64,000 nucleotides of DNA from a virus: the IMG/VR virus record IMGVR_UViG_3300045988_091582; one strand, given 5' to 3'. This document shows positions 10,041 to 11,406 of this stretch, in pieces. A program made the position numbers and the translations under genes. The notes under the pieces were generated by a model that was not told the DNA's origin, searched no databases, and saw only the letters and a list, made by a program, of their open reading frames with translations. Positions within the stretch are counted from its first letter, which is position 1. Each line of letters begins with the position of its first letter.

Positions 10041-10333
10041 TAATCAATTTTTATATAACCATTAACATCTAGATTATCATATATAGAAGTCATTGTATAT
10101 CCTGTAATTGGATTTCTATAATGATATTTTTTAATTTCAATATCTTCTTCTGAATTAGAATTTATATTTCGGTTGTCTTTAATCCATTGGTCTAAATCAG
10201 CTTCTGTTCCATTCTCTAATTGAAATAGAATCTTAGGTTCTGATTTTAATCGTTTTAATTTTTTAGTAAGATTAGTTGTTTTTAAAATCTTACCATTTAA
10301 TTCATAAATTGCTGCTATCATGTTCTCCCACAA
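10040..10333 (-). CDS. hypothetical protein
   Basis: Track ORF; 5' end overlaps the tRNA 3' exon, so the true start may be an internal Met. Confidence 0.4.
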   Translation of the reverse strand: MWENMIAAIYELNGKILKTTNLTKKLKRLKSEPKILFQLENGTEADLDQWIKDNRNINSNSEEDIEIKKYHYRNPITGYTMTSIYDNLDVNGYIKID

Positions 10334-10359
10334 GGATTCGAACCCTGACTAAAAGATTT

Positions 10360-11362
10360 CATTTTAACACCTCTGTAGAGGATTAGACTATCACATCCAG
10401 TCCTAAGACCAGTCTCTTTATTTAGTCGTTCACGCTGTATTTAAACTTGCGCCCTGTCACTTTATACTAAGTATATACGCTTCCAAGTCAATTAAAAGAG
10501 ATTCTACTTAAAGATTATGGATTATCCTTTAAGCATCCAATATTTCAAAGTAATAGTTTTTCCAAAGAATGCCAATATTTCTATTTAGAGTTGCTCTACA
10601 AGTTTTCATTAATTTAGTAGTTACTAAATTATTATCCATTAACCATTGACAACATTCCGCTATACATCCAAATCTTCTTATTTCATTATGAGAAGAGTCA
10701 TATTGTATAACATACTTTTGATTTTGTTTAGTTAATCCAGCTTCTGATAAAACTTGTTTTACTGCTTTAGGATTTAAATTATATTTATCAGCAACTTTCT
10801 TTTGATTTTTTAATTCTATATAAGAACTAATAATTAAATTCTTTAATTCATCAGAAAGTTCGTATTTAGATTCTACTTTTTGTTTATTTTTAGCACCATA
10901 AGTAGTGGTTTGACTATGACAATTAGGACACAAAAATCTTAGATTTTCTATTCTATTATCATTATTTACACCATTAATATGGTCTAATTCTAAAGATAAA
11001 GTCTTACCTTGCCATTCTGTAATTCCACATATTGCACATGTATAAGGAAGTAATTTGTTTCTTAATATATAGCTTCTTAATATATTACGTGCGTGTTTTG
11101 AATTTTCACATAATAATTTAGAAGCATCTATTTCTTTCTTTTCATTACAGTCGGCTATAGCTGATTTGCCTCTAAAATCTTTACCTGATAAATTTAAATC
11201 TTGCATTCTTTGTTTAACTTGTGAATATCCCCAACTGTTTCCAACAGTAGTATATCCAAGTTTAAATAAAACTTCTGAGATATTCAGACTTGACTTAACT
11301 AAGTCTGAAAACTCTTTATCCGTAAGTTTATAAATTTTATTTTCCATACTTTAAAATTTTTA
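10360..11362 (-). other. group-I-like intron in tRNA anticodon loop
   Basis: 5' exon ends in U and intron ends in G (..AAAATG); P7-like GACUA / AUAGUC pair near the 3' end; contains an HNH ORF. Confidence 0.5.
10529..11347 (-). CDS. HNH homing endonuclease (intron-encoded)
   Basis: Track ORF 272 aa; LELDHINGVNNDNRIENLRFLCPNCHS HNH motif; lies wholly inside the tRNA intron. Confidence 0.65.
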   Translation of the reverse strand: MENKIYKLTDKEFSDLVKSSLNISEVLFKLGYTTVGNSWGYSQVKQRMQDLNLSGKDFRGKSAIADCNEKKEIDASKLLCENSKHARNILRSYILRNKLLPYTCAICGITEWQGKTLSLELDHINGVNNDNRIENLRFLCPNCHSQTTTYGAKNKQKVESKYELSDELKNLIISSYIELKNQKKVADKYNLNPKAVKQVLSEAGLTKQNQKYVIQYDSSHNEIRRFGCIAECCQWLMDNNLVTTKLMKTCRATLNRNIGILWKNYYFEILDA

Positions 11363-11406
11363 AGAGTCTTCTGTGCTAACCATTACACCATAGGAGAATA
11401 TTATCT

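Follow-up and report, generated by a model that had tools for sequence, protein, structure and literature searches.

How a phage might decode the in-frame TAG codons that crowd its late-type genes is the question raised by IMG/VR virus record IMGVR_UViG_3300045988_091582, of which we analysed one stretch of 64,000 nucleotides (nt; hereafter the window, numbered from its first letter). Over its first 8 kb, coverage by open reading frames (ORFs) is 0.09 under the standard code and 1.15 when TAG is read as sense, and 113 TAG codons are spread over seven recoded genes in the window. Default scans with ARAGORN (12 tRNAs) and Rfam (11 tRNAs) make no call at 11397-10323, and default ARAGORN reports no tRNA(cta) anywhere else in the window. 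Our analysis indicates that 11397-10323 nevertheless very probably holds a phage glutamine-type amber-suppressor tRNA(CUA) gene, interrupted by a mobile group I intron that lies between U35 and A36 of the anticodon and carries an HNH homing-endonuclease ORF (Table 1).

When minus-strand nucleotides 11397-11363 and 10359-10323 (35 + 37 nt) are joined, ARAGORN folds them into a canonical 72-nt cloverleaf tRNA(cta), in agreement with an earlier note on this DNA made from its letters alone. Every element listed there is present in the sequence: an acceptor stem TCTCCTA/TGGGAGA with one G-U pair, a D stem GTGT/GCAC, an anticodon stem GAAGA/TCTTT, a T arm CAGGG-TTCGAAT-CCTTG, and discriminator A, after which no CCA is encoded. 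With introns allowed, ARAGORN returns one gene spanning exactly 11397..10323. In addition, an intron-less relative (L016), whose 5' half is identical to the 5' exon, has a continuous gene identical to the 72 joined nucleotides that scores 63.6 bits with the Rfam tRNA model (RF00005; threshold, 29). Among homologues, a change in the acceptor stem from C5:G68 to U5:A68 is compensatory.

The position of the break follows from alleles with an empty site. L016 and L022 represent the same locus, with flanks 91-97% identical on both sides, and lack precisely 11362..10360. The insert begins UAAAAAUU and ends AAAAUG; its terminal bases (U and G) differ from the adjoining exon bases (A and U), and the boundary thus cannot slide. 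Loop bases C32, U33, C34, and U35 sit at the 3' end of the 5' exon (...CUCU); the break therefore falls between U35 and A36, giving the anticodon CUA that the earlier note had read. Both possible joined loops were searched together in IMG/VR with the pattern AGAAGACTCTWAATCTTTTAG; CUCUAAA was found in 21 of 21 intron-less homologues and CUCUUAA in none. Relatives of the HNH protein were also sought in IMG/VR, yielding 25 loci, of which 21 (99-52% protein identity) have the ORF in the same place of a split tRNA gene. All 21 have a 5' exon ending in CUCU, a G as the last insert base, and a 3' exon starting with AA, giving a U before the insert and a terminal (omega) G, here 10360, in 21/21 loci. 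When all pairs ending in U and G were joined exhaustively and scored with ARAGORN, the outcome was too ambiguous for use. An archaeal or eukaryal bulge-helix-bulge tRNA intron (37/38) was rejected as well, since the position here is 35/36 and the insert has a group I fold.

The assignment of the insert to the group I introns, also proposed in the earlier note, is supported by the intron-less alleles, by covariation over 19 homologues, and by family scans. The last 150-190 nt of the insert were aligned for 19 distinct homologues, and a hand-drawn structure comprising P2, P3, P4, P5, P6/P6a, P7 (in a pseudoknot with P3), P8, and the outer P9 pairs was tested on this alignment. Standard pairs occupied 98.6% of 738 cells (40 pairs), compared with 33-48% when partners were slid by 1-3 columns; 17 of the 40 pairs had changes on both sides (1-6 in the slid controls), and the observed covariation score was reached by 0 of 500 shuffles. 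RNAalifold, given the alignment alone, independently returned P2, P3, P4, P5, P6, P6a, and P8. In P2, five of seven pairs had changed on both sides and 100% of cells were paired. The topology is that of a pseudoknotted core: P3 encloses P4, P5, P6, P6a, and the 5' strand of P7, and P7 (10386..10427) encloses the 3' strand of P3 together with P8. The P7-like GACUA/UAGUC elements pointed out from sequence form P7 in the covariation-tested fold. The P9 hairpin varies in sequence yet stays paired in eight relatives (CCAUU/AUGG, CCACU/GUGG, and CCUUU/AAGG). From the guide described below through P2-P9 to the omega G, the stretch measures 184 nt (10543-10360), or about 152 nt in subfamily B, which is without P9.

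Rfam's group I model (RF00028) gave a less straightforward result. Compared by eye, J6/7-P7 (GCGUGAACGACUAAA) and J8/7-P7' (GAUGUGAUAGUCUAAUC) resemble the RF00028 consensus gGUUCAaAGACUA and UgAAGAUAUAGUCu.aauc, the J3/4-P4 stretch AAUUGACUUGGAA resembles the consensus AAUUGCGGgAAA, the P7 region matches the consensus ...AGACUA... and ...AUAGUC..., and the P9 hairpin also has a consensus counterpart. RF00028 itself, which the earlier note had recommended as a check, did not match the insert at the gathering score or at E<=10, whether run on the 64 kb, on 1.2 kb, or on the 201-nt core. In IMG/VR, 111 stretches contain the core string GGCGCAAG...GCGTGAMNGACTRAA, roughly half of them being larger introns with long P9 extensions, and RF00028 matched the core-motif element in 0 of 20 such loci scanned (19 larger relatives and one tRNA form, L051); in two of these 20 loci, the same scan found other, unrelated group I introns. 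The model thus misses every core-motif element scanned, and its miss here is uninformative and not evidence against a group I intron. RF00028 does not cover the core-motif intron class. The larger introns that share the P4-P7 core string (L050, L052, L055, L062, L066, and about 35 other loci) come from many environments, and the core-string introns are a sizeable class overlooked by the standard model. No further copies of the intron core were found within the window.

The 5' splice site would be presented by an internal guide, UUGGA, whose complement is the ligated junction UCU|AA, a G.U pair falling at U35. Guide GGA (10538-10536) faces exon nucleotides U33-C34-U35 (11365-11363), and UCU/GGA lies within the minimum free energy duplexes; the guide UU can pair with A36 and A37 of the 3' exon (P10). 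The predicted exon-guide pairing (P1) is extended by a long helix. RNAduplex pairs the intron's first ~20 nt with the final ORF codons, placing UCU on GGA, and 11344-11357 with 10556-10553 and 10551-10542. The sequence of this extension differs in nearly every lineage. In duplexes computed for 13 distinct family members, the mean energy is -11.9 kcal/mol for cognate segments and -6.6 kcal/mol for noncognate ones; 0 of 20,000 permutations equalled the cognate value. Because the extension joins the start of the intron to the end of the ORF, the entire HNH ORF lies in the P1 loop. At the guide position, a divergent syntenic relative, L162, reads GGAG. Other candidate guides were considered: AUGGA at the ORF start has only 4 bp with the ligated exons and no P10, and remains a weak rival; AAGUAGAAUC, between P2 and P3, was dropped by eye; and pairing of the subfamily B intron start UUAUCC with GGAUAA of the P2 loop was dropped as not conserved in subfamily A.

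The ORF that the earlier note had called an HNH gene at 10529-11347 is borne out by Pfam PF01844, which matches residues 104-147 at 26 bits against a cut-off of 21.4, and by PHROG 10822 ("HNH endonuclease"; E = 2e-42). The motif CxxC...DH...N...CPNCH is intact in the translation, and searches of solved structures in the PDB and of NCBIfam returned nothing specific for the protein. In-frame TAG codons are absent from this ORF and from all 21 homologous ORFs. Its AUG (11347-11345) lies within the P1 extension and its UAA stop (10531-10529) within P2, a layout in which translation should compete with folding of the ribozyme; the subfamily B ORF extends into P7. Such competition has been described for other phage introns in a 2014 review (PMC3984707). 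Both the activity of the nuclease and its target are predictions.

Relatives of the intron's nuclease also occur outside introns. Distant ones (34-56% identity in the best matched segment) are free-standing genes within phage tRNA clusters; one stops 3 nt before an intron-less tRNA(cta), and another lies between tRNA-Gln(ctg) and tRNA-Gln(ttg). These free-standing genes hint at the origin of the intron's nuclease. Within the window, a second homing-endonuclease-like gene at 55405-56517 (+) matches PHROG 559 ("HNH endonuclease"; E = 7e-68) and contains 10 in-frame TAG codons though it sits among standard-code early genes, whereas the intron HNH gene has none.

What the suppressor would insert at TAG was addressed through both the recoded genes and the tRNA body. 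A tally of amino acids at TAG columns among close homologues (87% Gln) was rejected as circular, the database proteins having been translated with TAG as Q, and was replaced by a codon-level comparison of homologues of the 942-aa protein, whose gene in the TAG-rich block has 48 TAG codons. Against a 73%-identical relative, CAA/CAG accounted for 10 of 16 TAG-to-sense replacements in one direction and 2 of 5 in the other, and was the largest replacement class in a 64%-identical relative too, although CAA is two mutations away from TAG. By this comparison, TAG is glutamine in this phage. The tRNA body is likewise Gln-like and not Lys-like in sequence: from position 6 to position 33, it matches at every base the tRNA-Gln(UUG) annotated in Acinetobacter phage AM24, which has the same U1. 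The discriminator of Escherichia coli tRNA-Gln is G, and here it is A; charging with glutamine is a prediction.

The earlier note had placed late genes with TAG read-through next to the tRNA, and a block of six TAG-rich genes is indeed nearby, but on the opposite strand. One of its genes encodes a transglycosylase-domain protein of virion or tail type. The suppressor gene belongs to a short block on the minus strand, convergent with the late genes and outside their operon. A sigma-70 promoter scan around the tRNA gene was uninformative (35 matches versus 32 expected). Immediately downstream, the ATG of the next minus-strand ORF (93 aa) is at 10321, with the tRNA ending at 10323 (region 10319-10335). 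The acceptor strand GGGAGA stands just upstream of this ATG and resembles a ribosome-binding site, and processing of the tRNA 3' end would make the mRNA of the 93-aa ORF nearly leaderless. Some intron-less relatives (L005, L007, and L010) have a seemingly structured insert of 77 nt between tRNA and ATG.

Taken together, these data suggest the following sequence of events. A precursor would be transcribed from the minus strand, and the intron would fold with 10543-10360 (guide, P2-P9, and omega G) as its catalytic part. Exon U33-C34-U35 would pair with guide GGA 10538-10536, with a G.U wobble at the splice site, and a 14-bp extension of the exon-guide helix would close a loop of ~800 nt holding the whole HNH gene. 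Free guanosine would attack after U35, the terminal G 10360 would dock, and the exons would join to give the loop CUCUAAA. The spliced junction is expected to read ...GAAGACUCU|AAAUCUUU..., and the ligated 72-nt tRNA ...GAAGACUCUAAAUCUUU...; the mature tRNA would then read late-gene TAG codons as glutamine. The HNH nuclease, in turn, would be expected to cleave the tRNA(CUA) genes of co-infecting relatives that have no intron there, and repair would copy the intron in (homing).

Several observations weigh against this interpretation. Self-splicing is a prediction from the fold and its conservation. The RF00028 model, as described above, is silent on the insert. The three exon-guide pairs are invariant in all homologues, which leaves no room for covariation support, and another GGA, located at the start codon of the ORF, might be the guide instead. 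In the RNAalifold output, the guide region UAUUGGAU (10542-10535) is also paired with J8/7 AUGUGAUA (10396-10389; alignment columns 2-9 with 154-161); this pairing is kept by one-sided changes only, with no compensatory changes, and could represent a competing inactive fold or an artefact of leaving out the P7 pseudoknot. Seven other members of the family have A and not G immediately ahead of the 3' exon (AAC...). These A-ending copies may be decaying or may have an unusual 3' splice site, and some copies are perhaps inactive. Finally, two doubtful ARAGORN calls of tRNA(UUA) could also read UAG, of which Rfam's tRNA model supports the first (18730-18814; 51 bits) and not the second, and the window is part of a genome that may encode other TAG decoders. 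A real UUA anticodon could read both UAA and UAG, which is relevant where genes end in TAA.

The small size of the core raises the question of whether the intron, if removed, is removed unaided. A protein helper, either the HNH protein acting as a maturase or a host factor, may be needed, given that the stretch from guide to omega G is so short, above all in subfamily B, and that no obvious tetraloop-receptor periphery is present. None of our results speaks against a helper, although HNH endonucleases are not known to act as maturases, and we assign dependence on a helper a low but real probability.

A further possibility is that the spliced intron also serves as a timer, with slow or conditional splicing, or HNH translation set against folding, delaying the suppressor and so holding back the TAG-rich late genes. 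The placement of the ORF start in the P1 extension and of its stop in P2, by which translation and folding should exclude each other, would suit such a role, as would the confinement of TAG to late-type genes and the proposal that recoding regulates late genes (bioRxiv 10.1101/2021.08.26.457843). However, close relatives have the same suppressor at the same locus with no intron, indicating that the intron is unneeded for the life cycle, and its patchy distribution is as expected of a selfish homing element. We therefore regard a timing function as unlikely. The earlier note's suggestion that splicing would tie TAG read-through to intron processing stands as a predicted dependency, but nothing indicates regulation.

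It is very unlikely, in our view, that the tRNA gene is simply dead, with a mobile HNH element lodged in its anticodon, never removed, and another tRNA reading TAG. That splicing here is predicted, that Rfam finds no group I intron, that the terminal G is absent in some relatives, and that ARAGORN proposes two tRNA(UUA) elsewhere in the window would all be compatible with a dead gene. Yet the exon halves are intact and mutually complementary across very different tRNA bodies, the anticodon and acceptor stems covary across a 1-kb insert, strong compensatory selection maintains the group I fold of the insert, none of the HNH-linked loci departs from the U/G splice-site rule, and no other tRNA(cta) is present in the window despite its TAG codons. 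The alternative of a tRNA-Lys(CUU) whose intron occupies the canonical 37/38 position, suggested by the label that ARAGORN with introns allowed attaches to the locus (tRNA-Lys(ctt), intron at 39, 1004 nt), is practically untenable, because that program uses a set intron position, the intron-less homologues (including the two same-locus empty-site alleles) all read CUCUAAA, a break at 37/38 would give an intron ending in A with no U/G rule, and the tRNA body is Gln-like.

The reading of the locus as a suppressor split by a mobile group I intron is also consistent with how the family is distributed. At this locus, the intron is present in the window and in L001, L023, L024, and L161, and absent between the same flanks in L016 and L022. 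Among the 80 core-motif loci listed of the 111 IMG/VR stretches, 39 are of the tRNA form, from at least 19 IMG datasets, and 6 of 15 matches in GTDB genomes are as well, on contigs of metagenome-assembled genomes. The family was found in about 45 viral contigs by exact motifs alone. A search with the guide and P2 motif gave 45 true members and otherwise chance matches; it revealed no ORF-less or more divergent members, all 27 loci beyond the known set being chance matches. Every recovered family locus has a 5' exon ending in CUCU and a 3' exon starting with AA, and the host tRNA(CUA) genes differ in their stems, their variable arm, and even their T arm; the intron lineage appears to be restricted to tRNA(CUA) genes. 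Ten intron-bearing tRNA(CUA) genes (L036-L041, L043, L053, L090, and L123) have a T arm GTGGG-GGCAGCA-CCTAC without the usual TTCRA loop and cannot be called by ARAGORN even with exons joined. The syntenic relative L162 (ENA ERZ15610086; minus strand, ~12900-14200) has an intron at the same CUCU|U site in a host tRNA(CUA) with a long variable arm; its intron core is more divergent, and its HNH protein shows 44% identity over the N-terminal 155 aa only, the C-terminal part being different. In L022, a RAGATH-1 hammerhead ribozyme (RF03152; 76.6 bits) at 6350-6434 (-), ~2.3 kb from the intron-less suppressor tRNA, has no counterpart in the window.

The intron is dispensable, given that the suppressor occurs intron-free at the same locus in close relatives, and it is most simply, and most likely, a selfish homing element and not a regulator. 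Homing would necessarily co-convert the adjacent anticodon bases, the intron sitting between positions 35 and 36. It is conceivable, albeit improbable, that the intron carries the CUA anticodon into the resident Gln-type tRNA genes of naive phages and thereby creates or spreads amber suppressors and the TAG-to-Gln code across unrelated lineages. The restriction of the family to tRNA(CUA) genes with widely different bodies is compatible with this idea, as are the free-standing nuclease relatives that adjoin tRNA-Gln and tRNA(CUA) genes.

Table 1. Features of the split suppressor gene, its intron, and their surroundings (window coordinates unless a locus is named)
Feature	Positions	Strand	Evidence or remarks
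tRNA 5' exon	11363..11397	-	tRNA positions 1-35; acceptor 5' strand, D arm, anticodon stem 5' strand
Insert (intron)	10360..11362	-	1003 nt; bounds from empty-site alleles, structure from covariation
P1 extension, 5' strand AUUUUAAAGUAUGG	11344..11357	-	intron +6..+19; includes ORF start codon
HNH homing-endonuclease ORF	10529..11347	-	272 aa; Pfam PF01844, PHROG 10822
P1 extension, 3' strand CUAU-U-ACUUUGAAAU	10542..10556	-	last ORF codons, immediately 5' of guide
Internal guide UUGGA (putative)	10536..10540	-	identical in each of the 19 distinct homologues; P2 follows after 2 nt
P2 hairpin CUUAAAG/CUUUAAG	10507..10533	-	conserved loop GAUAAUNNAUAAU; covariation and RNAalifold
P3 UCUCUUU/AAAGAGA	10501-10495 with 10419-10413 (domain 10413..10501)	-	6/7 pairs compensated
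P4	10487-10484/10456-10453	-	one compensated pair
P5	10480-10479/10460-10459	-	one compensated pair; lineage-specific hairpin 10475-10463
P6	10452-10449/10435-10432	-	paired in alignment; RNAalifold
P6a	10446-10445/10438-10437	-	one compensated pair
P7 GACUA/UAGUC	10427-10423 with 10390-10386	-	pseudoknot with P3; one compensated pair (A-U to G-C)
P8 CUGGUC/GACUGG, loop UUAG	10412-10407/10402-10397	-	two compensated pairs
P9 hairpin CCUC(UACA)GAGG	10381-10378/10373-10370 (element 10360..10381)	-	followed by UGUUAAAAU and terminal omega G 10360
tRNA 3' exon	10323..10359	-	positions 36-73; starts A36 A37 A38; anticodon stem 3' strand, variable loop, T arm, acceptor 3' strand, discriminator A
TAG-rich block, late-type	1212-9801	+	six genes, 5-48 TAG each; TAG recoded
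Primase, helicase, exonuclease, NAMPT	14-64 kb		almost entirely standard code
"tRNA-Stop(tta)" calls	18730-18814, 19183-19277	+	long variable arms, mismatch in anticodon stem
A-ending relatives	L049, L075, L086, L087, L095, L096, L114		3' splice junction
Free-standing HNH relatives	L044 2453-3238; L045 2147-2790; L046; L047		

Surveys of recoded gut phages have described genomes that clearly read TAG as an amino acid with no detectable suppressor tRNA (PMC7886860, PMC12386605). The split suppressor is invisible to default ARAGORN and Rfam tRNA scans and its intron is invisible to RF00028; the intron family, with its ~45 viral contigs, can account for some of the missing suppressors and shows a way to find others. 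If splicing proceeds as predicted, the altered genetic code of this phage would depend on a ribozyme reaction, and a homing element would have as its target the anticodon loop of stop-codon suppressors. At ~150-185 nt, the guide-to-omega-G stretch is small for a group I ribozyme and lends itself to experiment. Our search turned up no phage suppressor tRNA described as carrying a group I intron, although our coverage of the literature was incomplete and earlier work is possible; within the literature searched, no phage tRNA gene had previously been assigned a group I intron.

Among phages, the DNA polymerase group I introns of SPO1 and SP82 carry the HNH nucleases I-HmuI and I-HmuII. Introns of that type likewise combine a phage group I intron with an HNH nuclease whose ORF is looped out of the core, but they reside in protein-coding genes, whereas the host gene here is a tRNA. 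All phage introns known in 2014 were in protein-coding genes despite the many tRNA genes of phages (PMC3984707). Short, "enigmatic" tRNA introns have been noted in Lak megaphages and jumbo phages (PMC6784885, PMC13037316), which share with the present case intron-bearing phage tRNA genes in TAG-recoded gut phages; in the portions of those reports available to us, the introns are assigned to no class and lie in sense tRNAs (Tyr and Thr), in contrast to a ~1-kb group I intron with a nuclease gene in a suppressor. The recoded crAss-like, Lak, and other phages also have a tRNA(CUA) and late genes with TAG as Gln (PMC7886860, PMC12386605, bioRxiv 10.1101/2021.08.26.457843), but the phage suppressor tRNAs described are continuous genes, and the one proposed here is split.

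Bacterial tRNA genes provide the closest parallels for the intron itself. Known cases include cyanobacterial tRNA-Leu(UAA) (34/35), tRNA-fMet (33/34) with I-Ssp6803I, tRNA-Arg (36/37), and Azoarcus tRNA-Ile (PMC3984707). Like the predicted phage intron, these are introns of a self-splicing type within the anticodon loop that have a short exon-guide pairing and a small core, and the tRNA-fMet intron also encodes a nuclease targeting the anticodon region. They differ in position, in their cellular hosts, in having a PD-(D/E)XK and not an HNH nuclease, and in the function of the tRNA; they are reported as subgroup IC3, and the phage intron is likened to them at the group I level only. Closer still in position are the 35/36 group I introns of Patescibacteria tRNA-Asn and tRNA-Asp, reported in 2026 to self-splice in vitro (PMC13011429). 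The core motif matched no Patescibacteria contig in GTDB genomes, and the likeness is drawn from descriptions. The two groups share the 35/36 insertion, a U preceding the intron, a G as its last base, and tRNA genes that standard annotation overlooks. The Patescibacteria introns, however, are bacterial, interrupt sense tRNAs, and are mostly without endonuclease genes, whereas the intron described here is that of a phage, probably interrupts a stop-codon suppressor, and carries an HNH gene in its P1 loop.

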